Below, piece after piece: positions 1 to 43,197 of a stretch of 43,197 nt of DNA (positions are counted from its first letter, which is position 1; each line of letters starts with the position of its first letter). This DNA is from a virus (lineage: Duplodnaviria > Caudoviricetes): the IMG/VR virus record IMGVR_UViG_3300037313_001003, positions 1 to 43,197 of that record; one strand, written 5' to 3'. The position numbers and the translations under genes were made by a program. The notes below the pieces were generated by a model, which did not search any database, was not told where the DNA came from, and was given only the letters and a program-made list of their open reading frames with translations.

Positions 1-80
1 ATTCGTAAATCCTAATCTCGGTGTCAGTGTATAGCCTGATGCTGAGATCTCGGCAGAAGGCTCCCTCGGGGGCCTTTTTT
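1..80 (+). ncRNA. Putative ~80-nt small RNA, copy 1
   Basis: Single-stranded 5' tail, hairpin ATCTCGGTGTCAG/CTGATGCTGAGAT (G-U pairs on + strand), then an intrinsic terminator; identical to copy 2, which has a promoter directly upstream. Confidence 0.65.
57..80 (+). terminator. Intrinsic terminator
   Basis: AAGGCTCC-CTCG-GGGGCCTT stem-loop running into a T6 tract. Confidence 0.8.
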
Positions 81-1400
81 CGTACTCACACAGTCTTATT
101 AAAAACTTATCAACCAGGCCGCAGCAGTCGGCCATAGTTTGTGTGTAGCAGTTTGGCAAGTAGCGCAAGATGCCAGGATATGGCAGCCCTCCGGGTCTAT
201 TTGCCGAAGCTCATACACATAAACATCTGCAATACATTAAGACAGTAACAGTACTCCTTAAGAGTAGCTTGACTGGCTAAATCTAGTAACAAGCATGGGG
301 ATTTCTAGCCCCGCCTAACCTAATCAGTTAGACAGAAGTAGGCTTAGAGTGGTGATGTCTAACGAGCCACTAGGGAGATATAGATTTCCCCACCATTGTT
401 ACTAGACCTATAGCTGGCGGTAAACACCCTTTGCTCAGAGCTTTTAGTATGGTTTGCAAGCCTACTAAATAGGGGCTGAGAGCGCATTAAAGCGTGGCGC
501 TAGGTGAGCTTTTGCCTCCAGCTATAGCTAGTTAAGTACTTAGGGAGTGTTACAGCGATAGTAAGTAACCCAGTGTGGACTAATGAGTTAAGGAATGCCA
601 CACCGTCAAAGTCACCTCCGCATAGGACTGACAGGTGAATACTCATTCTTACTGTCGTAGCTGGTAGGTGATAAAAGGTGTTTCGGGTTGCCAATCCCTT
701 CACTGCCAGCGCTGTTACTGTCTTAATGAGTATTACTTCGACTACAGGGCCACTGGGTAACAGGCTATAAAGGTAGTGAGTAGGTATGAGAGGGGCATCC
801 TGTCGGGGCAACGACGATTGTGTGTAGGAGGCATCTGAAACACATGGGCCATAAACGCTTAGTTTGCAGGATAGCGAAGCGAGTGCGTCTGTCCGTCCCC
901 TCGTACTTACTCATTACTGGTTGCCCCATAGACGCCTTGTAGTTGAGGGTAGAAGTGATACTAAGGTAGTGGTACATATGAAAGGCTAGACTGAGGGGTT
1001 GCGATATCCTCCATTCGAGTGTTTTAGGATCACTGAGTTGGACACAAACAACAAAAGTTGTAAGTAACAACATAACAAATACCTAGCTATGTATGAAAAG
1101 ACGGTAGCAATAGACTAGCGCCTTAGAGACGTTGCTTCATGGTTGGTAAGTCATCTTATGAGGGTAACCGTGAACAGTCACAGTAAGACTGAGCGGTATG
1201 GAGATTTAGTGCTTAAAACACCTAAGTCTTCATCATATCACATAGCGAACTAGCTAAGATATGAGCAAATCTACAATATGCAAAGTAAAGAACGAAGCGT
1301 ATATATAAGAATATAAACAGGAGGATGTTGCAGGAATAGTGACCGGAGCACCGCACCTTATGAGGCCACAGGCTCCCTACGTTATTAATGTAATGTACTC
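81..1400 (+). ncRNA. Giant structured ncRNA, copy 1 (~1.3 kb; GOLLD-like architecture, family unverified)
   Basis: No credible ORF. Long-range helices: 235-251/712-728 (perfect 17 bp), 252-262/539-549, 556-565/648-657, 739-750/934-945, ~999-1011/1321-1332. G-U pairs indicate + strand. Scaffold conserved in copy 2. Ends approximate. Confidence 0.85.
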
Positions 1401-22617: not shown

Positions 22618-22914
22618 TCAAGCTCCCCACTTCTTAGCGGTGTGGTGTTTCGTGTCCTGTACCATGACTTTCTTAGCGTCACCACCATTAAATGTTACGG
22701 TGAATGTCACATTACCTGAGGCTTTGGCAGCGCTCATGCCCTTAAACAGTTGTAGTACCATTTCCAGGGCCTTCGTCGTGTTCTCAACCTTCTCAGTGTG
22801 AATGAGCTGCGTATCGATGGTACTGACTTCGCCCTCATGCTTTTTAATAAACAGTGTCACCACGCCAAAGTCTAACCCTTGGTGACTATCTGCGATGATC
22901 TTATTAATGTCCAT
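22618..22914 (-). CDS. Hypothetical protein
   Basis: Coupled to the terminase nuclease gene. Confidence 0.7.
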   Translation of the reverse strand: MDINKIIADSHQGLDFGVVTLFIKKHEGEVSTIDTQLIHTEKVENTTKALEMVLQLFKGMSAAKASGNVTFTVTFNGGDAKKVMVQDTKHHTAKKWGA

Positions 22915-23564
22915 TAGACGAACATCCCATCCTTTCCGAATAACTGTTCTTCATCGTGATACGGTATCTGTGTACTAATTGGTTGCTCTGTCTGGTACAA
23001 CTGCCATGCTCCAGCTAGGGCCATGATCAAGTCGTCGTGTGCCCCCTTTTCTGCCTGGGCTTTCCAACTACTTGAGGTTTGGGCGATGATAAATGAGAAC
23101 ATTTCATTGATGGTGGGTTTGTCGTATATACGAATGAGTTTGTTATCGATAGCTTCTTTAAGCATCGCGAGCATAGTCGGACGGGTTGCAGAGTTAGTCG
23201 TATAGCCGAGTCGGACAGAGTTACCTGTACTTTCGGTACTGCCGATGTTTTGCTTCTCTTGATATATGTGGTACTTGCCTTGTCGATTGAGTGCGGCCAG
23301 ACGTTCCATCTCCGCCACGCCACCGTTATTGCGTTCAAAGGCCACCACTGGCTGAACCTGCGTTGCATCATAAATCCTTTCTAATTCGTTATGTACTAAG
23401 GGTGTCATCTCGGTTGCGAGTACCTTGGAGTGATAGACTACTGGTACATCGAGCTTAGTCTTACTGAGGAACTGTACTGCTGAGTAGTCCAACCCTCCCC
23501 AGGCTGTATCGGCGAAGACAACGAAAAACTCATTCGGTTCGTAATGACGGTACCGCCTAAACAT
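22914..23564 (-). CDS. Terminase large subunit, nuclease domain (separate ORF; start revised)
   Basis: ADTAWGGLDYS, FERNNGG, GAHDDLIMALA RNase H-like motifs; ATG overlaps upstream stop. Confidence 0.88.
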   Translation of the reverse strand: MFRRYRHYEPNEFFVVFADTAWGGLDYSAVQFLSKTKLDVPVVYHSKVLATEMTPLVHNELERIYDATQVQPVVAFERNNGGVAEMERLAALNRQGKYHIYQEKQNIGSTESTGNSVRLGYTTNSATRPTMLAMLKEAIDNKLIRIYDKPTINEMFSFIIAQTSSSWKAQAEKGAHDDLIMALAGAWQLYQTEQPISTQIPYHDEEQLFGKDGMFV

Positions 23565-24237
23565 TTTTTTTACCCTGTTCGTGTTCGGCCGCTCGGAGCA
23601 CGCCGTCTGGCGTTCCCATGTCAGCAAAGTAACCTTGGTGCTCTATGAACTGAGTACCCAGTTGGCGATAGTAATTGTGTATGTCGACAATCTCGAGTTC
23701 ACCTGATTGTGCCGGAGTCATGCCATCAATGAAGTCGAATACCCGTTCATCGTAGTAGTAGCCGATAATAGCTTTACGCCCGATATCTATGTAACGAGGT
23801 TTCTCAATGATAGTGTCAGACTCGGGATGCCAGACTGAATGACTCGTGCCATGTTCAAACTCATGCCAGAACAAAGTAGGTTCAGTCTGTGACTTGAGTG
23901 GAGGATCGTAGTAACAGTCACCGAGAAGTAACGGGAAGATCCCTTTTACAAGATCTCGAGCCTTACTTATAGCATCAGCTACTCCTTTCGGTTCTGCCTG
24001 GACGCGGTAGATAAGATCTAATCCTACACGGTCGCCTTCTTTGAAGTAGGATGCGATGTCTCCTATAGCTTGAGGGCTTGCAATAATCACGGCTGAGTCA
24101 CAACCCATCGCTTTTAGCGTGTTAAGGGGGTACTCAATAGCCGGGCGATCGTAAACCATAGCCATTGCTTTAGACTGCACTTCGGTCTGTGGGGCAAGTC
24201 GTGAGCCTGAGCCACCAGCAAGTATTACGCCTCTCAT
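23557..24237 (-). CDS. Sugar-phosphate nucleotidyltransferase (RmlA/RfbA-like)
   Basis: GVILAGGSGSRL, Q.EPKG.ADA, LGD, EKP, GELEI.D, DMGT motifs. Confidence 0.9.
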   Translation of the reverse strand: MRGVILAGGSGSRLAPQTEVQSKAMAMVYDRPAIEYPLNTLKAMGCDSAVIIASPQAIGDIASYFKEGDRVGLDLIYRVQAEPKGVADAISKARDLVKGIFPLLLGDCYYDPPLKSQTEPTLFWHEFEHGTSHSVWHPESDTIIEKPRYIDIGRKAIIGYYYDERVFDFIDGMTPAQSGELEIVDIHNYYRQLGTQFIEHQGYFADMGTPDGVLRAAEHEQGKKNV

Positions 24238-25037
24238 ACCGTCATTGGCTCCTTAGCCTGCTCTAGGTACCACTGGAGGGCTTCCATATCGAAGTAACCA
24301 TCACCAGATGTAACGAAAGCTTCCTGTGCTGATTCAGGGTACTCTTGCTTAAACAATCGTCCTTGCGTCTTACGCTTCTGATCTAGAAACTCTGCTGAGT
24401 AGAAGTCACTAGCCCTGTAGAAATGCGCCGCCCACCCTGTTTCACCCATAACCGATGAGTCGTAAAATGTCTTAAATTCATTGAACCCATTAGCAGTTGT
24501 CTCAATCACTGCCTTACCGCCAGGTACAAGCGCGGAGTCCACACTAGCTAATAGCTCGGTGAAATTCTTATAAAATGCTGCTTCGGATAAGTGTAGGTTA
24601 TGGATAGTCTTAGAGCGTCCGAAATCTGAGTTCTCAGCTGTGCCGATGATGTAACGACTACCGTTATGACTGTTCTGCAATTCATATTTGGAGTTGTACT
24701 TCAGGATTCCGTTCTTGCCCTCGAGCGGTAGATTGTTATACGCACAGTATGCAGCTAGGTAATGCTTGACCCGGGCTAGCAGATCTTTAGCATTATCCGA
24801 GATGTCAGCAACAACTACTGATAAGGTGTTCTCTTTGAGTAAGAAGTCAGCAGTGAAGGCTGCGAGAATGAAGCTAGAGAAGCCTTGCTGCCGTGCTTTA
24901 AGGATTATGTCCCTGCCTGTAGCGTCTTGTACGAATTTCTCTTGAATAGGGTTTAGTGTAAACGGTAACTCCTGCCTGTCCTTGTTGACGATAGTCAGGC
25001 GAGCTTCAATGAATCGCTTGTAGGGTTCGTAGATCAT
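24234..25037 (-). CDS. Terminase large subunit, ATPase domain (separate ORF)
   Basis: LNPIQ Q-motif, LKARQQGFS Walker A, LHLSE Walker B, ETTANG coupling motif, FKQEYP. Confidence 0.92.
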   Translation of the reverse strand: MIYEPYKRFIEARLTIVNKDRQELPFTLNPIQEKFVQDATGRDIILKARQQGFSSFILAAFTADFLLKENTLSVVVADISDNAKDLLARVKHYLAAYCAYNNLPLEGKNGILKYNSKYELQNSHNGSRYIIGTAENSDFGRSKTIHNLHLSEAAFYKNFTELLASVDSALVPGGKAVIETTANGFNEFKTFYDSSVMGETGWAAHFYRASDFYSAEFLDQKRKTQGRLFKQEYPESAQEAFVTSGDGYFDMEALQWYLEQAKEPMTV

Positions 25038-33021: not shown

Positions 33022-33399
33022 TTATCTCCTGTAACTTCGTTGTTTAACGACGGTGTAGGTGTGGTCGAGGTTCATGGGTAGCCATATTTCCTCTAAAAAC
33101 TTACGCCGCCACTTGTAATCTGTGGTTTCGACTCCTTTTGCCTCATAAAGTTCAAATGAGCCGTCGTTATGGTGTATCCTGAAATCGACTTTATGTGACA
33201 CTTTGAACGCTGGTAGTCCATCGGGACGATGACACCAGACTTCAACCTTGTACTGCCGATCGTAGGTTTTAATGTCCTTGGCTTTTACTCGTAGATCGAG
33301 CTCTGCAGCCACACTTGCTTCAAACTTACTGTCGTACTTGTAACCGTCGTACTCCGTTTTCTTCGCACCGTACTTGTTGCCGTATCGTTGGTAGTACAT
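33022..33399 (-). CDS. DUF1064-like PD-(D/E)XK nuclease
   Basis: NKYGAKKT..DG..YDSKFE, VDF, EAKG. Confidence 0.85.
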   Translation of the reverse strand: MYYQRYGNKYGAKKTEYDGYKYDSKFEASVAAELDLRVKAKDIKTYDRQYKVEVWCHRPDGLPAFKVSHKVDFRIHHNDGSFELYEAKGVETTDYKWRRKFLEEIWLPMNLDHTYTVVKQRSYRR

Positions 33400-33641
33400 T
33401 AGTCGCGACTACTCATCTCAAAACGGTATTCCAGTTTGAACCAGAACTTATTGCGCTGTGGCTTACGGAACATGGTTCCTTGGTCACGGCTGATCGAGAT
33501 CTCGTAGCCGTCGTTTCTCAGTTCGTAGATGCGGGCTGAGTAGCGCGGGGTGATCTTAAACAGTTCATAGTTCGATACTCGGTCGGTGGTCTGTAATTTG
33601 CGGAGTATTTGTTTATAGTGAGTCTCTTTGACTGCTTGCAT
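33399..33641 (-). CDS. Winged helix-turn-helix protein
   Basis: QILRKL...RYSARIYELRNDGYEI pattern. Confidence 0.7.
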   Translation of the reverse strand: MQAVKETHYKQILRKLQTTDRVSNYELFKITPRYSARIYELRNDGYEISISRDQGTMFRKPQRNKFWFKLEYRFEMSSRD

Positions 33642-34380: not shown

Positions 34381-34937
<557 letters not shown>

Positions 34938-35129: not shown

Positions 35130-35144
35130 TGCTTTCCCCTTATC

Positions 35145-35407
35145 CCGCCGATGGACTGATTAGAGCGGATGGCTTACCGTTTCGCGTGATTATTAGTAGC
35201 ATCCCCTCCGCTCAAGCCAGCCCACTGACGTAGTGGTGAGAGAGTCTCGCATGCTCTCCCACCGTGTAAAGCGCATGTCGTTGGTAGCTTGGTGCTTCGA
35301 TACCCATCCTTAGCGTTAGCGGTGGGGGTCATATGGCATAAGGCCACTCCTATCCGTTCCGCAATACTTTGATACCCGCTTTAGTTACCAACACAATGCG
35401 CTTTACG
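35145..35407 (-). ncRNA. Candidate structured RNA in early operon
   Basis: Three consecutive stem domains, incl. a perfect 11-bp GTAAAGCGCAT/ATGCGCTTTAC stem; A-C mismatches on + become G-U on -. Confidence 0.5.
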
Positions 35408-35418
35408 TTTAGAATCGG

Positions 35419-35934
35419 TTAATAGCAAGCAACCTTATGGCGGCAAACGCCCCACTGTCCTATAAAGCTGTGGCCGTTAGCGGCGTATATCTTATAGGCC
35501 CAAGCGACGTTAATGCTTGCTACTTTCAGTTCCGCTTCGCTTGGTCTGGTGAGCGCATTAGCGCCCCAGATGTTTACTTGGAAGCAGCCAACCGAGTAAT
35601 CGTATGTTGACGGGTTATAATTTACTTGCCCCGGGTCTAACCCACTTTCGGCGGTAGAAACTTCTAACGCTACAGTTTGAGACCAATCATACTTGGATAT
35701 CTCAGCTTCACAACTCCCTGTTGGAACTGTTGGTGTAGGTTGCACTGGCTGTTGTGCTTGTTGAGCTTGTGGCTCTGGCGTCTCAGTTGCCGCAACCTTC
35801 ACCTGCGGTGCTGTTGATTGCACCGCTACCGATTCTGACTTTTTAATGTTCTGAGACGCTCGATTCGTGTTGTTTAGGGTCTGATTTGTTGGTATCGCCA
35901 AAATTAAGGCAATAGCAAACCCGACCAATCGCAA
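35419..35934 (-). CDS. Secreted lytic transglycosylase / lysozyme-like protein
   Basis: Signal peptide, Pro/Gln/Thr linker, AESG catalytic Glu, GCFQVN motif; TTG start. Confidence 0.82.
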   Translation of the reverse strand: MRLVGFAIALILAIPTNQTLNNTNRASQNIKKSESVAVQSTAPQVKVAATETPEPQAQQAQQPVQPTPTVPTGSCEAEISKYDWSQTVALEVSTAESGLDPGQVNYNPSTYDYSVGCFQVNIWGANALTRPSEAELKVASINVAWAYKIYAANGHSFIGQWGVCRHKVACY

Positions 35935-36104
35935 TGAACGAATGGCGTACCTCTTTTTAAGTAGATTGAAGGCTCTACATTAGCCTTGGTGAATATGGCT
36001 TCACCGCACCGTATAAACCTCTATGTTCTACCTCTGTTGTGAGCCGACTCATCAAGTCGTTGGCTGCTCATCGGTTGAGGAGAACTCCAGCTTTTTAAGG
36101 GCTG

Positions 36105-36153
36105 GTCTGATGTCGATGATCAGATTTCGTAAATCCTAGTCTCGGCATCAGAC
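36105..36153 (-). promoter_or_regulatory. Leader hairpin, predicted sRNA target
   Basis: Inverted repeat GTCTGATGTCGA/TCGGCATCAGAC; 36126-36151 matches 36427-36452 at 23/26 positions. Confidence 0.6.
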
Positions 36154-36174
36154 TTAAATTAAAAAGTCCGGGGG

Positions 36175-36203
36175 TGGAAATCCCGAACCGTATCTGTTAT
36201 GCT
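36175..36203 (+). promoter_or_regulatory. Phage-borne promoter for the target tRNA
   Basis: TGGAAA-17-TATGCT with TG extension, 12 bp before the tRNA fragment. Confidence 0.5.
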
Positions 36204-36215
36204 AGATGACGTTAT

Positions 36216-36261
36216 GCCATCTTAGCTCAGGGGTAGAGCACTTCCATGGTAAGGAAGGGGT
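36216..36261 (+). tRNA. 5' fragment of tRNA-Thr(GGU); probable att core region
   Basis: GCCATCT-TA-GCTC AGGGGTA GAGC-A-CTTCC ATGGTAA GGAAG-GGGT: intact D and anticodon arms, no T-arm or 3' acceptor strand. Confidence 0.88.
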
Positions 36262-36343
36262 TCTGACCTCTGTACGGTCGAGTTTTCCGAGTGCTAAGCT
36301 TTTAAGGCAACGATTGAAGCGTAATGCTTAATTGTTACTTAAG

Positions 36344-36372
36344 AGTATAGAGCATAAGCGCACTATTGTCAA
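36344..36372 (-). promoter_or_regulatory. Near-consensus leftward sigma70 promoter (candidate early/lytic promoter)
   Basis: TTGACA-17-TATACT on minus strand, pointing across att. Confidence 0.8.
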
Positions 36373-36390
36373 TATATATTGTTAATTAGC

Positions 36391-36419
36391 TTGAACAAAT
36401 TGCGAAACTTTGCTATTAT
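36391..36419 (+). promoter_or_regulatory. Rightward promoter for sRNA / giant RNA
   Basis: TTGAAC-17-TATTAT with TG extension; predicted start ~36426. Confidence 0.7.
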
Positions 36420-36425
36420 ATAAGT

Positions 36426-36505
36426 ATTCGTAAATCCTAATCTCGGTGTCAGTGTATAGCCTGATGCTGAGATCTCGGCAGAAGGCTCCCTCGGGGGCCT
36501 TTTTT
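36426..36505 (+). ncRNA. Putative ~80-nt small RNA, copy 2
   Basis: Bounded by promoter and intrinsic terminator; identical to 1-80. Confidence 0.7.
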
Positions 36506-37706
36506 CGTACTCACACAGTCTTATTAAAAACTTATCAACCAGGCCGCAGCAGACGGCCATAGTTTGTGTGTAGTAGTGAGATGGTGTCAGAGAGCGAGTA
36601 TAAACGTGTGGGTGAAATAAAATACTAGTTACCCAGGTTTAATGATGAAGCAGAGTCGCTAATGCCTCGACCGTCTATGCTCTGTACTGGCGACGGATAG
36701 CCCATAGTACAGCGCGCTCAGGTTCGAATCCTGGCCATCTCTCTCATACACATAAACATCTGCAATACATTAAGACAGTAACAGTACTCCTTAAGAGTAG
36801 CTTGAGGGTAGTAGTGCTAGTAGTAACAAGCCTGGCGGTCATCGACTTTTGGGCTGAACCGAGTCCAGGAAAGCCCCGTGCTACTAGCTCTCATACCCTT
36901 AAGAGTTCACTTATGAGACTTTGGGTCCTTTTATAAGGCTTAGGGAGTGTTACAGCGATAGTAAGTTACGCCTAAACGAATAACTATCACCCAGAGCGTG
37001 TTTAGTGATAGGTTTACTGTCGTTAGCTGGTAGGGGCGTCAGCCTGTACGACCTCTGGTGACAAGTCGTAACTACCAGCGCTGTTACTGTCTTAATGAGT
37101 ATTACTTCGACTACAGGGCCACTGGGTAACAGGCTATAAAGGTTGAGGTCAGTTTGTCGGGACTCTCTATGCGTAATGGCGAGAGATAGATACACAGATC
37201 TGGGAAGAATCCGAAAGGAGCGTCCCGGCGGCATCTGACTTTAACTGGTTGCCCCATAGACGCCTTGTAGTTGAGGGTAGAAGTGATACTGAGGTAGTGG
37301 TACATATGAAAAGCTAGACTGAGGGGTTGCGATATCCTCCAGACGAGTGTTTTAGGATCACTGAGTTGGACACAAACAACATAACAAATACCTAGCTATG
37401 TATGAAAAGACGGTAGCAGTAGACTAGCGCCTTAGAGACGTTGCTTCATGGTTGATAAGTCATCTTATGAGGGTAACCGTGAACAGTCAACAAAGACTGA
37501 GCGGTATGGAGAGTTAGTGCTTAAAATACTAAGTCTTCATCATATCACATAGCAGACTAGCTAAGATATGAGCAAATCTACAATATGCAGAACCTAAAAC
37601 TAGGCGTATATATAAGAATATAAGCAGGAGGATATTGCAGGAATAGTGACCGGAGCACCGCACCTTATGAGGCCAAGACTCCCTACGTTATTAATGTAAT
37701 GTACTC
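36506..37706 (+). ncRNA. Giant structured ncRNA, copy 2 (~1.2 kb)
   Basis: Same scaffold helices as 81-1400 with different inserts; pairing-preserving changes such as CTGCCAGC vs CTACCAGC opposite GCTGGTAG and GTAAG vs ATAAG opposite CTTAT. Confidence 0.85.
36578..36741 (+). other. tRNA-like module embedded in the giant RNA
   Basis: 7-bp acceptor GAGATGG/CCATCTC and T-arm TCAGG-TTCGAAT-CCTGG with a ~130-nt non-canonical interior. Confidence 0.7.
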
Positions 37707-37723
37707 CATCAAATAAAAATCTA

Positions 37724-37752
37724 TTGTCAAAACATAATCTAAGCGAGATAAT
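37724..37752 (+). promoter_or_regulatory. Integrase promoter, unit 2
   Basis: TTGTCA-17-GATAAT. Confidence 0.65.
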
Positions 37753-37850
37753 GAGAACGCAACGGGAAGCTTAAGCGACCTAGACTCTCTGCAGGGGGAA
37801 GTCCGGCTAACATAGTCTGTACCCTGTTAAATCTCTATAAGGAAGGCATT

Positions 37851-37982
37851 ATGGTGAGAACCAAAAATGTCTGTGGCTGCCCCCATCTCTGGGTCTGGAT
37901 AAACTTCAAGAGAGAACAGCACACAGACAGTATTAGTGTACTCCTCTTTCTGTTCGACATGAAGGTGAACTATGTCAATTAG
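37851..37982 (+). CDS. Putative 43-aa uORF overlapping int, unit 2
   Basis: MVRTKNVCGCPHLWVWINFKREQHTDSISVLLFLFDMKVNYVN*. Confidence 0.5.
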   Translation: MVRTKNVCGCPHLWVWINFKREQHTDSISVLLFLFDMKVNYVN

Positions 37983-38802
37983 TGAGGCTTTTCAGTCTTA
38001 TGCTAATGACGTAATCGTGTTCAAGAATCAGAGTAAGAAGACTGAGGAGAATCACTTTATCGTCATGAAGGCGCTTATATCTCATTTTGGAGACATTGAG
38101 ATTGAGTCGCTTACTTTCCCTATGGTTCGTGACTGGAAGATGCTTCTCGACAAGACCCGTTCTGATGCTACCGTCAGGAACTACATTATTAAACTACGGG
38201 TGGTGCTGGACTACTTAGAGAAACACGGCCACAGCGGCCTGAGAGCCGATCAGGTGCCGGTTCCAAAGCGCCGGGATAAAGTGCCGACATTCCTAACTAA
38301 GCACGAAGTAACCCAGTGTATTGACGCTACTAAGCGGATTAAGAATAAGGCTATCATTGCCCTGCTCTACGCCTCTGGGATACGTATCTCCGAACTGTGT
38401 CAGCTCGATCGTGGTGAGTTAAAAGACGGCTCATTTACAGTAATTGGTAAAGGTGGTAAGGCTCGACTCTGCTTCTATGACGAGCGGGCTAATACGCTTA
38501 TTAAACTCTACTTAGAATCCAGGGAAGATAATAACCCTGCTCTCTTCTTATCAGATATGGGACTCCGGATTACGCCAGGCTGTATTCAGGAGACATTTAA
38601 GAGTGTCCGTAAGCAAACCGGCCTCGACGTCCATCCGCATACTCTTCGGCACTCTTTCGCAACCAACTTATTACAATCGAATACAAATTTGTTCCATGTA
38701 TCTAAACTCTTGGGTCATGCTCAATTGAACACCACAAGTCAGTATCTCCATGTAGTTAATGAAGACCTTCGTTCTGTATATATGAAGCATCATACGGTGT
38801 AG
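37972..38802 (+). CDS. int: Tyrosine recombinase/integrase, unit 2
   Basis: Same catalytic motifs; 55 of the first 56 residues identical to unit 1, more diverged after. Confidence 0.95.
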   Translation: MSISEAFQSYANDVIVFKNQSKKTEENHFIVMKALISHFGDIEIESLTFPMVRDWKMLLDKTRSDATVRNYIIKLRVVLDYLEKHGHSGLRADQVPVPKRRDKVPTFLTKHEVTQCIDATKRIKNKAIIALLYASGIRISELCQLDRGELKDGSFTVIGKGGKARLCFYDERANTLIKLYLESREDNNPALFLSDMGLRITPGCIQETFKSVRKQTGLDVHPHTLRHSFATNLLQSNTNLFHVSKLLGHAQLNTTSQYLHVVNEDLRSVYMKHHTV

Positions 38803-38984
38803 TGCGCTTACACTCTCCCACGGCATATTCTCCCTTTTGAGGCGGGATGGGGGTGTGGGCCTGCAATAGCCCGAAAGAAGAGATGTTTGTTTGTGTATAG
38901 ACTTCAGCAAAGAAAATCGAAGGATTGAAAGGAACGAAGGGAACGAGCCCTGAGAGAGTATAAAAGCACTAAATTGTTAAGGTA

Positions 38985-39218
38985 CTAGCGGTCTATGAGC
39001 TGGTAGAATGGATCAAAACGCTCAGGAATAACTTGTAGAAGATGCAAAGCAGTAACGCCGATCCCACCAATAACCAAAGGGCGAGTATGATGATTTTCGA
39101 GTCCTCGCTTTGCAGCATGGGTGAGCGTTTCGCTAGCCAGTAAGTCCCACGCCAGTACAAAAGCCCCAAGCGCAAGCCAACCGTATGTGCCGTTGGTAGT
39201 TTCATTAGTCCTCCTCAT
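38985..39218 (-). CDS. Small membrane protein
   Basis: Homolog of 2719-2955. Confidence 0.8.
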   Translation of the reverse strand: MRRTNETTNGTYGWLALGAFVLAWDLLASETLTHAAKRGLENHHTRPLVIGGIGVTALHLLQVIPERFDPFYQLIDR

Positions 39219-39339
39219 TATTTAGTCCTGATAAGTCGTCGATAAATATGTCATGCACCTCAACAAGGCGCGGTAGTATGATTTCTTTAACCATTGGATA
39301 GACAAACTCACGGTCAGGCTCCGGTTCATTCTCAGGCAT
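39205..39339 (-). CDS. Small hypothetical protein (44 aa, not in ORF track)
   Basis: MPENEPEPDREFVYPMVKEIILPRL...; homolog of 2942-3070. Confidence 0.65.
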   Translation of the reverse strand: MPENEPEPDREFVYPMVKEIILPRLVEVHDIFIDDLSGLNNEED

Positions 39340-39571
39340 AAACGTTCCTCAGTTTAGTTTCCTGTGGTGACCGGCTCATAACGTGCTGGAACTCATACCA
39401 TGGGTCTTGCCCTTCCGTGATGTCGTGAGCAAAGTTCGGGCCGGCATTATCTTGAACGGTCACAAAGAAATGTTCAGGGTTTGTCCGTACCATCCAGAGC
39501 GTAATAAGAAGTCCGGCGTTTCTCCGTTCTGCTAGGTCTATTACTGATTCGTCTGGTTGTAGTTGTTCCAT
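39332..39571 (-). CDS. Hypothetical protein
   Basis: Diverged homolog of 3063-3305. Confidence 0.7.
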   Translation of the reverse strand: MEQLQPDESVIDLAERRNAGLLITLWMVRTNPEHFFVTVQDNAGPNFAHDITEGQDPWYEFQHVMSRSPQETKLRNVYA

Positions 39572-39760
39572 GCTTTTTCCTTTAATCTGTATCCCATAAC
39601 CACGGCCAAGGCGGTTAATTAGTGCGTGACTTCTTGGAGTAAATCTAGAAGTCGTTGTGTGTCTGCTTTGCTATAGGGGTCGAGTTTGCCCTCTTTTATG
39701 ACTGTGGATAAAAACTCACAGAGCCATACCCAGTCATTCACTGGGAGGTTCACTGTGATG

Positions 39761-40009
39761 CTATTCAACATTCAGTGTCCTATAGACGGCATGCTGGTTA
39801 CTATCTGCGAGTATCCACATGCGCTCTTTTACAAGTTTCTTTAGTGCCTTTAACTGATGGCCTTCAGGTGTGGCTGCTTCTATGGTGGTAAGCAAGTCTC
39901 CTAGCGCCATGTTAGTGTTTGTGCGAAGCTGGCTTGCTATCGCTGTGCCATACTCGTACTCTTTAGTCGTATGGTCGTTCTTTTCTTTACTTTCCGATGC
40001 TGGTTGCAT
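39761..40009 (-). CDS. Hypothetical protein (unit 2 only)
   Basis: GGAGG SD; helical; no counterpart at this position in unit 1. Confidence 0.7.
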   Translation of the reverse strand: MQPASESKEKNDHTTKEYEYGTAIASQLRTNTNMALGDLLTTIEAATPEGHQLKALKKLVKERMWILADSNQHAVYRTLNVE

Positions 40010-40097
40010 AGAACTATCCTCTTCTTTTCTTGGCCGCAGATAGGGATATAGATTGTTAATTTACGAGGTAGTTTTACGACTTGCCAAGGTCGAGCTT

Positions 40098-40421
40098 TTA
40101 CTCCCAATCTGGGGGGAAGTTACTGCTTCTTATATCTTTATAGTGAAATTCCTCGAACACCTCCCGATCCATATCTGAGATGTTGGGTAGGTTGAGGTGT
40201 ACGGTGAATTCCTTATCGAGCATGTACTCTGCTACTTCATTAAAGGTAGAGTTAGAGTTCCATAAGTAATGACCGGAATTTGAACCATCGTCTTCAGTCG
40301 AAACAATAAAGACATGGTCGTAACAAGCGAGCTCACCCATAAACGTGTATAAATAGGTGTTCTCTCTGGTGCCTTCGAGTTCTTGACCGCCAAAGGTGAA
40401 TTTAATGCGTGGCTCAGACAT
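40098..40421 (-). CDS. Acidic hypothetical protein (unit 2 only)
   Basis: Coupled to exonuclease stop. Confidence 0.7.
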   Translation of the reverse strand: MSEPRIKFTFGGQELEGTRENTYLYTFMGELACYDHVFIVSTEDDGSNSGHYLWNSNSTFNEVAEYMLDKEFTVHLNLPNISDMDREVFEEFHYKDIRSSNFPPDWE

Positions 40422-41211
40422 ACTTCATCCGCTCTTCTGATTGCCTAAACTCAGCGACTCGCGCTTTCATGGGGTGTCCACAATCGCCACAGCGGAAGTA
40501 CTGATACTTGTTGGCTTTGGTTGAGGCGTACTTCATACCGGCTTTGATGTTTTCTGAAAGACAAACCCGACAAGCGTTCGGCCGTTCGGCGAGCACGTTC
40601 ATTGCGGGGTGATTCTTGATCCACGGGCGGAGTTCTAAATACAAGGCTTCCAGAGATTCAATATCTCCCTTGTTGTACTTCTTCATGTGTTTCCAGGCTT
40701 TCTTATCGCCTGCCATACAGCCGTCCCAGGTCTTCATACCGCCGGCGTCGAGCTTGTGCTGGAGTTCCAAAGACTTGCAGAGGTCTGACAGCTTATTAGA
40801 GGTATGAGCGCCGCTACGCTTGGCTTCTAGCTTGGTGTCTATCTGGGCGTACGGCATCGGCGGGTATAAATGGTGGATCTGCATCCGAGCTTGTACCTTC
40901 TTTTGATCGAAGGAATTGCCATTGTGAGCGATAACCACATCGGCTTTAGTGAAGAGGTCGGCCAGGTACTCAACCACTTTGCGGTCGTTCGACTTGTCAC
41001 GCTTGTAATCTAGGGGGAAGTCAGGTAATGCAACGACAGTGACTTTCTTATCCCCGAGCCACTTGTAAGCAAAACAGAGGATGTACCAGTCGTTGACGAT
41101 TCTGCGTTCGATAGGGCGGTCATCCCAGAGTCCCCATCGTTTTTCAGTTGTTTCTATATACGAAGTCTCGATATCGTACAGTAAGATGCGCGGATTAGGC
41201 TGCTTGTTCAT
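40414..41211 (-). CDS. DnaQ/RNase H-like exonuclease with Zn ribbon
   Basis: DIET, AHNGNSFD, YNKGD, CRVC...CGDC. Confidence 0.85.
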   Translation of the reverse strand: MNKQPNPRILLYDIETSYIETTEKRWGLWDDRPIERRIVNDWYILCFAYKWLGDKKVTVVALPDFPLDYKRDKSNDRKVVEYLADLFTKADVVIAHNGNSFDQKKVQARMQIHHLYPPMPYAQIDTKLEAKRSGAHTSNKLSDLCKSLELQHKLDAGGMKTWDGCMAGDKKAWKHMKKYNKGDIESLEALYLELRPWIKNHPAMNVLAERPNACRVCLSENIKAGMKYASTKANKYQYFRCGDCGHPMKARVAEFRQSEERMKYV

Positions 41212-41590
41212 AAATACCCTCTACAGCTATAAAACCTAGCTGCTTAGTTAAGTGATTACCGATACGTTCAGAACGTCCGGCTATTCGTGGTGAGGTGTGT
41301 GTTTCAGCTTGCTCATAGAAGTATTGAATTGCAGCTTCTATGCCCCAGGTTCCGAGTCGTTGTTCGCGTGGTGTATTGTCTAAAATGTCTACCAGTTCGT
41401 GCATCTGACTACGGGTCGGTTTCGGCGGCCCATAGAACAGTTCATGGTGGAGGTCACGGTGCGCTTGTACATCCATTTTTATGATTAACCCCCTGTTATT
41501 TCGGAAGCGCTTCTCCATGGCCTCGCGGTAGACGCGGCGGTGGTAGAACGCATGGTGGTGGTTCTGGTCGTATGACTCAGAACACGCCAT
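41195..41590 (-). CDS. His-rich hypothetical protein
   Basis: Positional diverged homolog of 4109-4417. Confidence 0.65.
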   Translation of the reverse strand: MACSESYDQNHHHAFYHRRVYREAMEKRFRNNRGLIIKMDVQAHRDLHHELFYGPPKPTRSQMHELVDILDNTPREQRLGTWGIEAAIQYFYEQAETHTSPRIAGRSERIGNHLTKQLGFIAVEGIYEQAA

Positions 41591-41594
41591 TGCT

Positions 41595-41870
41595 TTAGCT
41601 CTTCCGTCCTAGCGCTAAGCTAAGAAGTACTGGCACAATTTGCGTTCTGATGGCTGCAAGCCCCGCTCCCACAGCGCCAGCAATGGTTAACTGAACCTCG
41701 GCGGCTGAGTGTGCAGCTAATATATGAGCAGCAAAGTACGCCGATGCTACCTGCCAGGCTGTATGAAAAGCCCTGTCGGCCGCTGGATGGGCGATAAGCC
41801 AAGCGTTCACTGCGCGAACCGTAGATATAATCGAATAAGTAACTCGGGCTAAAAAAGCTTTAATTTTCAT
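41595..41870 (-). CDS. Putative holin
   Basis: RAFHTAWQ motif, hydrophobic, after endolysin. Confidence 0.7.
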   Translation of the reverse strand: MKIKAFLARVTYSIISTVRAVNAWLIAHPAADRAFHTAWQVASAYFAAHILAAHSAAEVQLTIAGAVGAGLAAIRTQIVPVLLSLALGRKS

Positions 41871-41879
41871 GATTACTCC

Positions 41880-42680
41880 TTACTTGAAAACACTAGTTAG
41901 TTTGCTCAGTATTGATTGGACTATTTCGAGTATTTGTTTAAGCAGTGTGTTGTTCTCCTTAACTACTGCGTTAGTGTCATCAACGGGTACGGGAGCGGGT
42001 GGAATGGTGGGCGGTGGTGGTACAGGAACTTCGACAGGTGCCGGTACTGGCTCTGGTACAGGAGCCGGTGTTGGTTGTGGTTGGACAGCGTGATAGCCGT
42101 ACTTCTTCAGAACGTCTAAAGATACGAAACAGGCGTTCGTGTCGAGTGGTGAGCCTTGGTACTGGTGAATAATGTAAGGAGGCGTGTTCGGTATGTCCTG
42201 GTCTGGCGAATAGCGGTAATCTGCGAGCCATAGGCCACAGTTCTTTAATACGTCCTTAAAGCCGTACTGCTGGAGCATTGAGGTGTAGGTGTAGAACAAC
42301 GGCCATACGCCGGTCTTTTCGTGTACTCGATTTACAAATGCTAAACACCAAGCGTTAGGGTCTGCTGGTGGGTTCATACTTGCAGTGAGTTCGTAGTCGA
42401 GAATAAGGATGTCACCGTGAGCGAGTGGAGAACATGCACCGATAAAGAAATCAGCTTCTTGGATAGGGTCTGCCCCACCGGCGAAGTGGTAGAGGCCAGG
42501 AACCTTGCCTAAGCGGATAGCGTTATTGTAGTTTCGAGCAGCCTGGGTGTCGTAATAGCCCTGCTTACTTCCGTAGTAGAAACCGCTCATCTTCATAAAG
42601 ACGATGGGTGACTGGTCAGCGTCCATGTTGTATTGACCCTGGGCGTACGAAACATCAAAGAACTTAATATAGTTAGACAT
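41880..42680 (-). CDS. Endolysin, GH25 muramidase with Pro-rich linker
   Basis: DVSYAQG, GLYHF, LDYE, LWLADY, DTN motifs. Confidence 0.9.
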   Translation of the reverse strand: MSNYIKFFDVSYAQGQYNMDADQSPIVFMKMSGFYYGSKQGYYDTQAARNYNNAIRLGKVPGLYHFAGGADPIQEADFFIGACSPLAHGDILILDYELTASMNPPADPNAWCLAFVNRVHEKTGVWPLFYTYTSMLQQYGFKDVLKNCGLWLADYRYSPDQDIPNTPPYIIHQYQGSPLDTNACFVSLDVLKKYGYHAVQPQPTPAPVPEPVPAPVEVPVPPPPTIPPAPVPVDDTNAVVKENNTLLKQILEIVQSILSKLTSVFK

Positions 42681-43101
42681 TAGCTTCCTCCTTTTTTGCT
42701 ATGTATCTTGCGTGCCAATAGTCTTTAGTTGATTGTTTAGCGTTGTATCGTCTCCAAGAGGCAGTTCGACAGGTCTTGCAGTAGCGTTGCTTTGCGTTCC
42801 TGCCGTCCAATGGATGCCCTTTAGCGCATTTATCCAGATTGTCGTAGTATTGTTTCGCTTTTACATTGGCGTGAAGTGCTTGGTGTTCACTTCTAGTCAT
42901 AGGTGTGAGGTGGTCAGGATTTACGCACCACTTGTTTTCGCATTCATGATGAATAACCAAGTCGCTGCTAATAAGTCCGTGTTTATCCATATATGCGAGA
43001 CGGTGCTGCGGGTACGTAACACCGTTTCGGGTCTTACGGTAGTAACCTCTGTGAATTGTGCCAGTGCCTCTTTTGCAAGGAGTGTCGTGAAAGGTAATCA
43101 T
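42673..43101 (-). CDS. HNH homing-type endonuclease (unit 2 only)
   Basis: HRLAY, IHHEC.NKWCVNPDHL, CAKGH...CKTC. Confidence 0.88.
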   Translation of the reverse strand: MITFHDTPCKRGTGTIHRGYYRKTRNGVTYPQHRLAYMDKHGLISSDLVIHHECENKWCVNPDHLTPMTRSEHQALHANVKAKQYYDNLDKCAKGHPLDGRNAKQRYCKTCRTASWRRYNAKQSTKDYWHARYIAKKEEANV

Positions 43102-43197
43102 TTATCCCCTCTTTAATCCTTTAACTGCTGCGTATATAGCGAATAGTGATGCTAAGACACCGATTGCCGCTTTAACGAGAGCGACTTCCCGACGGGT
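43101..43197 (-). CDS. Partial coiled-coil/TM lysis-associated protein
   Basis: 3' end homologous to 5352-5585 (TRREVALVKAAIGVLASLFAIYAAVKGLKRG). Confidence 0.75.

Follow-up and report, generated by a model that had tools for sequence, protein, structure and literature searches.

The region around the phage attachment site in the window (the entire virus record, 43,197 bases) probably forms the attP control cassette of a temperate phage, in which integration would be the off switch and a predicted antisense RNA is the likely repressor. Since the predicted early promoter, P_early, lies across the insertion site from the lytic genes, integration would unplug those genes. The parts of this reading carry different weight. 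We hold with strong confidence that the promoter is split from its operon by att in a conserved geometry. Pairing of the small RNA with its target is, on predicted duplexes, highly probable, and repression of early transcripts by that RNA is reasonably likely. Table 1 lists the features.

Table 1. Positions of the cassette elements, the two integrases, and the repeated RNA block in the window
Feature	Position	Strand	Basis or remark
RNA block, second copy (phage A's own right arm)	1..152	+	99% identical to 36426-36577
Tyrosine integrase, phage A	1707..2537	+	276 aa, PF00589; relatives in Saccharibacteria
First early gene	35419..35934	-	Predicted membrane-anchored transglycosylase-like protein
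Target hairpin in early leader	36107..36151	-	36126-36151 complementary to first 26-27 nt of the RNA
T1, predicted intrinsic terminator	36161..36189	-	Hairpin + 5 U; insulator between att and early genes
Extended -10 TGtTATGCT; predicted to replace the promoter of the tRNA gene that is restored in the lysogen	36195..36203	+	Distribution among 5'-half carriers
5' half of tRNA-Thr(GGT), attP homology	36216..36261	+	tRNA comparison
Palindromic CCATGG, inferred strand-exchange region	36244..36249	.	Smallest overlap between 5'-half and 3'-half carriers
Pre-att leader	36262..36337	-	Bases about 36273-36290 predicted to pair with T1 5' arm
P_early, TTGACA-17-TATACT	36344..36372	-	Predicted early promoter; start site predicted near 36337
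P_s, divergent promoter TTGAAC-17-TG-TATTAT	36391..36419	+	Consensus-type
Predicted small RNA, 80 nt	36426..36505	+	14-nt single-stranded 5' end, hairpin, terminator hairpin, U tract
Tyrosine integrase, phage B	37972..38802	+	Identical to L001 integrase

Pfam and PHROGs scans of the window found phage genes, including those for capsid, portal, terminase, and lysis, nearly all of them on the minus strand, and two tyrosine integrases on the plus strand. The integrases, which belong to two phages here called A and B, are 76% identical to each other. Relatives of the integrase were on Saccharibacteria or Patescibacteria contigs in 4/4 loci, and the tRNA fragment matched a Saccharibacteria tRNA-Thr (L073) at 44/46 bases. 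Both observations point to Saccharibacteria as the likely host. The sequencing runs containing the phage DNA were from soil or rhizosphere, and no RNA dataset was among those listed. Seven of the nine runs were examined, as contigs rather than reads, on which host-phage junctions are not resolvable across the 46-nt core, and parts of the left arm had no coverage in runs X2-X4, X6, and X7. Three further observations concern the gene array. The terminase large subunit is split into two ORFs at 22914-25037 (minus), with a nucleotidyltransferase gene between them that overlaps both. The ssb gene at 34381-34677 (minus) has an in-frame stop after codon 30, and ssb is whole in the sister phage. An inverted repeat with copies 121 nt apart lies between int and the end of the convergent late operon (2535-2705 and 38800-38970), and is similar to part of the hairpins at 35230-35290.

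A sequence-only reading of this DNA had placed a TTGACA-17-TATACT promoter on the minus strand to the right of the tRNA fragment, with the first gene of the minus-strand array starting to the left. Both positions were confirmed. P_early, at 36372-36344, is the sole promoter match of at least 11/12 in the 43-kb window, where two others reach 10/12; it points toward the minus-strand operon, with the 5' half of tRNA-Thr(GGT) in between, and the first minus-strand ORF starts with TTG at 35934, left of att. It had also been claimed that no comparable minus-strand promoter lies in between, and the scan of 35934-36340 indeed found no minus-strand match of at least 9/12 and no extended -10, so that no early promoter was detected from 35934 to 36216. 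In dinucleotide shuffles of the window at least one match of 11/12 occurred in 8/20 (mean, 0.55); thus, the single P_early match alone is not beyond chance. What lifts it above chance is conservation: the sister phage L001 retains both hexamers amid 8 nearby changes, and a counterpart lies 63 to 126 nt before att in 24/25 loci of relatives, the exception being L027.

The first early gene itself has no Pfam match. Its product is 31% identical to an SLT_3 protein of L028, and an SLT gene is also first in the operon in L003, L006, L039, and L056. An in-frame ATT at 35943 (in the region 35941-35957) lies 5 nt from a strong ribosome-binding site, with codons kept in L001, and this rare codon may be the real start of the gene. 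Long hairpins follow the gene at 35130-35418 on the minus strand (arms at 35266-35289 and 35383-35406), and a comparable arm pair follows the SLT gene of L003; these hairpins are a possible processing site or antitermination RNA. Two more promoter-like sites with an extended -10 lie within the array on the minus strand, at 16189-16161 and 28183-28155. The former heads a CAP-domain gene followed by a terminator, and the genes behind both sites are possibly expressed in the lysogen.

ARAGORN found no complete tRNA in the window, and no ORF of at least 50 aa crosses 36216-36261. Contigs of host type share the tRNA half with the window and diverge beyond it. Some relatives have the 3' half of this tRNA and others the 5' half, on one strand or the other, and the point at which their sequence begins or ceases to match the tRNA is around CCATGG. 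We infer that the crossover lies at CCATGG (36244-36249), left of P_early; no crossover site to the right of 36372 was found. Sister phages with opposite orientation (L006/L046, L008/L013, L044/L056, and L018/L022) were observed, and among sisters all four orientations around CCATGG occur. Such flips would fit a palindromic overlap. Integration in the reversed orientation into tRNA genes was reportedly treated by Zhao and Williams in 2002.

We then compared the relatives that carry the 5' half. The extended -10 just upstream of the tRNA half was present in 6/6 carriers in which the half opposes P_early (window included) versus 1/6 co-oriented carriers. As a phage with the 5' half must provide the restored tRNA with a promoter, this pattern is an internal control that supports the model. 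The same cassette was seen at three tRNA targets, namely tRNA-Ala (L016, L034/G356, and G271), tRNA-Gly (G215, G179, G242, G326, G341, and L007), and tRNA-Thr (L028); L028 and G215 have nearly the same RNA and target at different tRNAs. A whole tRNA gene lies beside int at L041:973-1200, L045:2002-2076, and L027:7099-7175, and L041 also has a separate bare att core. This arrangement looks like tRNA-dependent lysogeny, which is said to have been described in one earlier study.

The conservation of the cassette was analyzed in 25 loci of relatives, which were picked for showing the RNA-target repeat pair. The order promoter-att-leader that the sequence-only reading had proposed to look for in relatives was conserved: 24/25 loci have the order promoter, att, T1, and early leader with target, in two genome layouts (operon following int or running away from it). 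A predicted T1 lies 6 to 18 nt before the target in 24/25 loci; L023 was missed by the script.

Integrated relatives were examined in 14 Saccharimonadia genomes. Seven had two att copies 28 to 34 kb apart on the integrase contig, and a second att on that contig was not found in the other seven (G390, G230, G296, G271, G369, G330, and G045). In 7/7 prophages, P_early lies at the integrase end and T1 with the leader lies at the far end. Thus, the separation of promoter and operon by integration, which had been proposed from the phage sequence, is visible at both junctions. The seven prophages represent approximately four independent elements (G001; G356; G215/G179; G242/G326/G341), with integrases 35 to 53% identical to that of the window. 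G001 and G356, the two that were scanned, contain terminase and portal genes between their junctions. G356 has the orientation of the window: at its early end the tRNA is restored with the phage promoter and 5' half, and P_early is directed toward host DNA. P_s is retained in the prophages. An integrated copy of the exact window phage was not found. The further claim that the transcript of the circle crosses attP into the early genes agrees with this geometry; the transcription itself would follow from it.

The promoter P_s diverges from P_early, and its counterpart ends 1 to 9 nt ahead of the repeat copy in 22/24 rows. The small RNA that would follow has a fold z score of -5.4 on the plus strand and -3.1 on the minus strand, and no Rfam match was found in the window or in seven related loci. 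The first 26 nt of the RNA repeat at 36126-36151, and the RNA is thus complementary to the early leader, 13 nt past T1. The predicted pairing there is 24/26, plus two G-U pairs and one mismatch. The relatives have no detectable sequence in common here, yet each has its own RNA-target pair. Operons opposite to int go with a direct repeat and co-oriented operons with an inverted one, so that the RNA is always antisense.

In a blind test of 53 loci, the 34 nt directly downstream of the best-scoring promoters ahead of int were scanned against the locus on both strands; eight duplicate or short loci had been left out beforehand. The best duplex, with an energy of -39 kcal/mol or below, lay immediately beyond att in 23/53 loci, and three more (L017, L028, and L049) had a weak duplex in the right place. 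Of the remainder, 20 lacked a flank, 3 were integrated junctions, and 2 had promoters below threshold (L036 and L037); L014 and L029, with both flanks present and no RNA-target pair, were true misses. Among 31 selected pairs, the cognate duplex was the best or tied with that of a sister in 30, and the window was second only to its sister, as its RNA pairs slightly better with the target region of L001. Because these pairs had been selected, their shuffle statistics overstate the significance. The target stem covaries as RNA: 8/16 pairs were changed on both sides in 11 related leaders (0/500 shuffles), and an overlapping 6-bp alternative stem was kept with 2 such covarying pairs, both stems having been drawn from one of these same 11 leader sequences.

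On the other hand, the promoter split could be real and the small RNA not a repressor. It could instead activate read-through or processing, or it could regulate replication via the rep/origin region at whose head it lies. Downstream of P_s there are also rep and int, or an ORF-free spacer. In one clade, binding of the RNA frees the alternative stem just before boxA, which could be an on state, and in the window leader no off structure is predicted upon binding (neither a second terminator nor occlusion of a ribosome-binding site). However, P_s is consensus-type and is retained in the prophage, so an activator RNA would favor leak and superinfection. The phage-specific RNA-target pairs fit immunity groups, and the target lies in the early leader, 28 to 34 kb from rep in the prophages. 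We consider this alternative unlikely, although less so than the other rivals.

The region between the small RNA and int is, in the window, an ORF-poor spacer of 1.5 to 1.6 kb (36510-37971 and 85-1706), with short motifs common to the ORF-free relatives L030, L032, L036, L038, and L080 and with folded patches on the plus strand; it is possibly an initiator-free origin or a long RNA. Many relatives have at this position an ORF of 96 to 175 aa and lack these motifs. No Pfam or PHROG match was found for this ORF, which may be a replication initiator, given its likeness to DnaD-like proteins and the nearby repeats.

It is also conceivable that the repeat pair consists of DNA sites (integrase arms or operators of an unrecognized protein repressor), with a protein holding lysogeny and the promoter split being secondary. 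The window copies flank att as direct repeats, the flip in orientation is also expected from inversion of a module, and most ORFs are unannotated. No CI-like family was found in the window ORFs (66 in Pfam and 51 in PHROGs), in G004 (49 shorter ORFs in Pfam), or in the ORFs of G001 and G356 (93 in PHROGs and 34 in Pfam), and the HTH genes that were found sit within the early operon, with a winged-HTH gene at 33399-33641. Because most ORFs have no family, the absence of a CI-like repressor is weak evidence, and a novel repressor may exist. The repeat copies, however, are 22 to 34 nt long and wholly different between phages whose integrases are 45 to 65% identical; they start 1 to 9 nt downstream of a -10 box and are followed by a terminator; and the covariation of the target stem is that of an RNA. 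The phage A integrase is of a short form, with the catalytic domain at residues 107-262 of 276, which leaves no room for an arm-binding domain. DNA sites are accordingly an improbable explanation of the repeats.

T1 lies between the promoter and the target. The circle must therefore bypass T1, and the small RNA cannot act on T1, since its target lies downstream. In the window T1 is weak (-10.7 kcal/mol), and a stock terminator scan listed neither T1 nor the small RNA terminator. The predicted T1 pairing probability was 0.00 with the pre-att leader, 0.66 without it, and 0.79 with the leader shuffled, and the margin of the leader-T1 pairing was 4.3 kcal/mol. In a duplex shuffle test of this pairing across att, the window was not significant (z = -0.3), and z was below -2 in 9/21 loci. 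T1 was predicted to form in the attP transcript at a probability of at least 0.87 in 19/24 loci; it was lost only in the window and L001 and partly lost in L013, L046, and L004. G356 has a leader-T1 pairing similar to that of the window. A general antiterminator pairing across att was ruled out, as 19/24 loci keep T1 and the predicted pairing holds for the window lineage only. The best matches to boxA before att were 7 to 10 of 12 (8 in the window), near background.

The prediction that T1 forms in most attP transcripts would suit a P_early whose chief product is a short RNA ending at T1, or whose role is to transcribe the tRNA gene, with the early genes using an unrecognized promoter past T1; in co-oriented 5'-half carriers, P_early would indeed drive the tRNA after integration. 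But the best promoter score from att to 200 nt past the target was below that of P_early in 23/24 rows, and the window P_early opposes the tRNA half and so cannot serve the tRNA gene. We regard this explanation as very doubtful.

According to the sequence-only reading, a tandem junction re-creates the connection, so that one unit's promoter faces the early genes of its neighbor. The composition of the contig did not support this. Positions 35733-43197 are 99% identical to phage B (L001/G004), which is an independent 37.9-kb record with circularly overlapping ends, and positions 1-36425 are likely, from the sequence, a circular phage A genome with 1-152 as terminal overlap. There are 8 differences from phage B (L001) in 36330-36408 and none from 36409; thus, the changeover between A and B sequence is within the shared RNA block rather than at att, and the cassette would be phage A's own attP. 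Runs holding only phage B have the B-type promoter region, and one contig over 36232-36552 in run X1 branches into A-type and B-type continuations. The contig looks like circular phage A plus a run-off into sister phage B, and its more probable origin is an assembly path through the shared RNA block or a homologous recombinant rather than a tandem. The least probable reading is a true double prophage in tandem, with the phage B promoter driving phage A early genes, and it was ruled out as the likeliest one: the left arm of A joined to the right arm of B is the expected look of a tandem junction and both phages occur in the same run, but the contig has no host DNA, the switch (36409-36553) is at least 160 nt right of att, B is a separate record, and the X1 contig branches.

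The attP control cassette would work as follows. In the free circle, a transcript from P_early would cross att, pass T1, and continue into the early and late genes, which form one array on a single strand. Recombination near CCATGG would leave P_early at the integrase end facing host DNA, as the geometry of the seven prophages indicates, and the early leader at the other prophage end behind T1, which would block host read-through. Because the 5' tRNA half is carried opposite to P_early, the phage would supply an extended -10 promoter and so keep the host tRNA gene alive. P_s, which remains with the prophage, would make the small RNA, whose free 5' end is predicted to enter the loop of the target hairpin and unzip it, and this may silence leaked or superinfecting early transcripts in a sequence-specific manner without Rho. 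In the least certain step, read-through of T1 in the window circle would be helped by the pairing of the pre-att leader with T1, and most relatives would need another route around T1. The sequence-only reading is incomplete in that T1, the replacement tRNA promoter, and the antisense RNA are missing from it.

The hosts of these phages appear to lack Rho. Among Saccharimonadia genomes (G002-G064), Rho was found in 0/61 and NusB in 60/61. A boxA-type motif, presumably boxA as judged from its consensus, was present in 4/4 host rRNA leaders. A boxA of the rRNA type followed the target in 11/21 loci, mostly of one clade, versus 1/267 background windows, and the region after the target in the window had none (8/12, background level). 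We tentatively extend the model to an entire clade, the tailed temperate phages that infect Saccharibacteria lacking Rho, with chances somewhat short of even. Lysogeny would be kept there without a repressor protein: integration would separate the sole lytic promoter from its operon, the terminator would insulate the end so created, and a phage-specific antisense RNA, acting as a gate on terminator read-through or on a site of Nus-factor loading, would define immunity groups.

If true, the model describes a lysis-lysogeny switch that needs nothing but DNA rearrangement and RNA, in hosts whose sampled genomes yielded no Rho, and it is the first mechanistic model that we found for lysogeny control in Saccharibacteria phages. 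Immunity groups would be predictable from a 25-nt sequence, the tRNA-half flips between sister phages would have a reason, and the RNA-target pairs would be a natural orthogonal set. A further question that arises from the model is the role of NusB and boxA in bacteria that lack Rho. Our literature search, with most subscription papers outside its reach, found nothing on this cassette and no mechanistic model of lysogeny control in Saccharibacteria phages. The P2 "split operon" is a precedent, a term that the search did not find; P4 CI and P1 C4, two antisense RNAs of phages, both rely on Rho. The accessible text of PMC2951348 treats only the integrase promoter of KplE1 intS, and that of PMC12647753 gives no mechanism.

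Among known integration-dependent controls, mycobacteriophages had been cited as a precedent with a different mechanism. The difference stands, and Tn916 proved to be the nearer precedent. As described in the accessible text on the integration-dependent immunity of phages BPs, Brujita, and Charlie (PMC3694055), integration sets the state there as in the window, and the integrase is likewise short, without an arm-binding domain. In those phages, however, attP lies inside the repressor gene and integration removes a degradation tag, whereas in the window att lies in a noncoding leader, and no rep or cro of that kind was found. The rarer case of reversed-orientation tRNA integration, in which the element carries the 5' part of the tRNA (PMC6563490, accessible text), resembles the window in that attP has the 5' tRNA part and a predicted replacement promoter, with G356 as the integrated example. 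The window group differs in having all four orientations among sisters, around the palindromic CCATGG.

The closest known systems, by analogy, appear to be Tn916, with its promoter across att and its T1, in combination with antisense control like that of P4 CI or P1 C4. In Tn916, expression depends on circularization and involves Porf7, canT, and a terminator T1 (PMC11658703, in its accessible text, as for all statements on Tn916 here). Like the window, for which the evidence comes from the prophages of relatives, Tn916 has its main promoter cut from the operon by integration, and an intrinsic terminator at the element end, predicted in the window, insulates it from host promoters. Read-through occurs in the Tn916 circle only, and the same logic is proposed for the window. 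In contrast, Tn916 is conjugative, inserts into AT-rich targets, and has a processive antiterminator of 452 nt. The window has capsid, portal, and terminase instead of T4SS or relaxase, a phage lytic operon, a tRNA att, a short pre-att leader (63 to 126 nt across the loci compared), and, in addition, a predicted trans-acting antisense RNA. A check for a canT-like antiterminator predicted local anti-T1 pairing in the window and L001 only, with pre-att boxA at background level. As far as the accessible texts describe them, P4 CI causes premature termination (PMC4825925) and P1 C4 is needed for full repression of ant (PMC8198154), and in both, as predicted for the window, a small RNA pairs with the leader of a lytic or antirepressor transcript. 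P4 CI is processed from the transcript under its control and has two targets, and P1 C4 works under the C1 protein repressor, whereas no CI-like family was found in the window. The window RNA, unlike either, has no Rfam match and belongs to a host class that appears to lack Rho, and it would come from its own divergent promoter, with its own terminator, on the opposite strand to a single target (22 to 34 nt across the phages compared).
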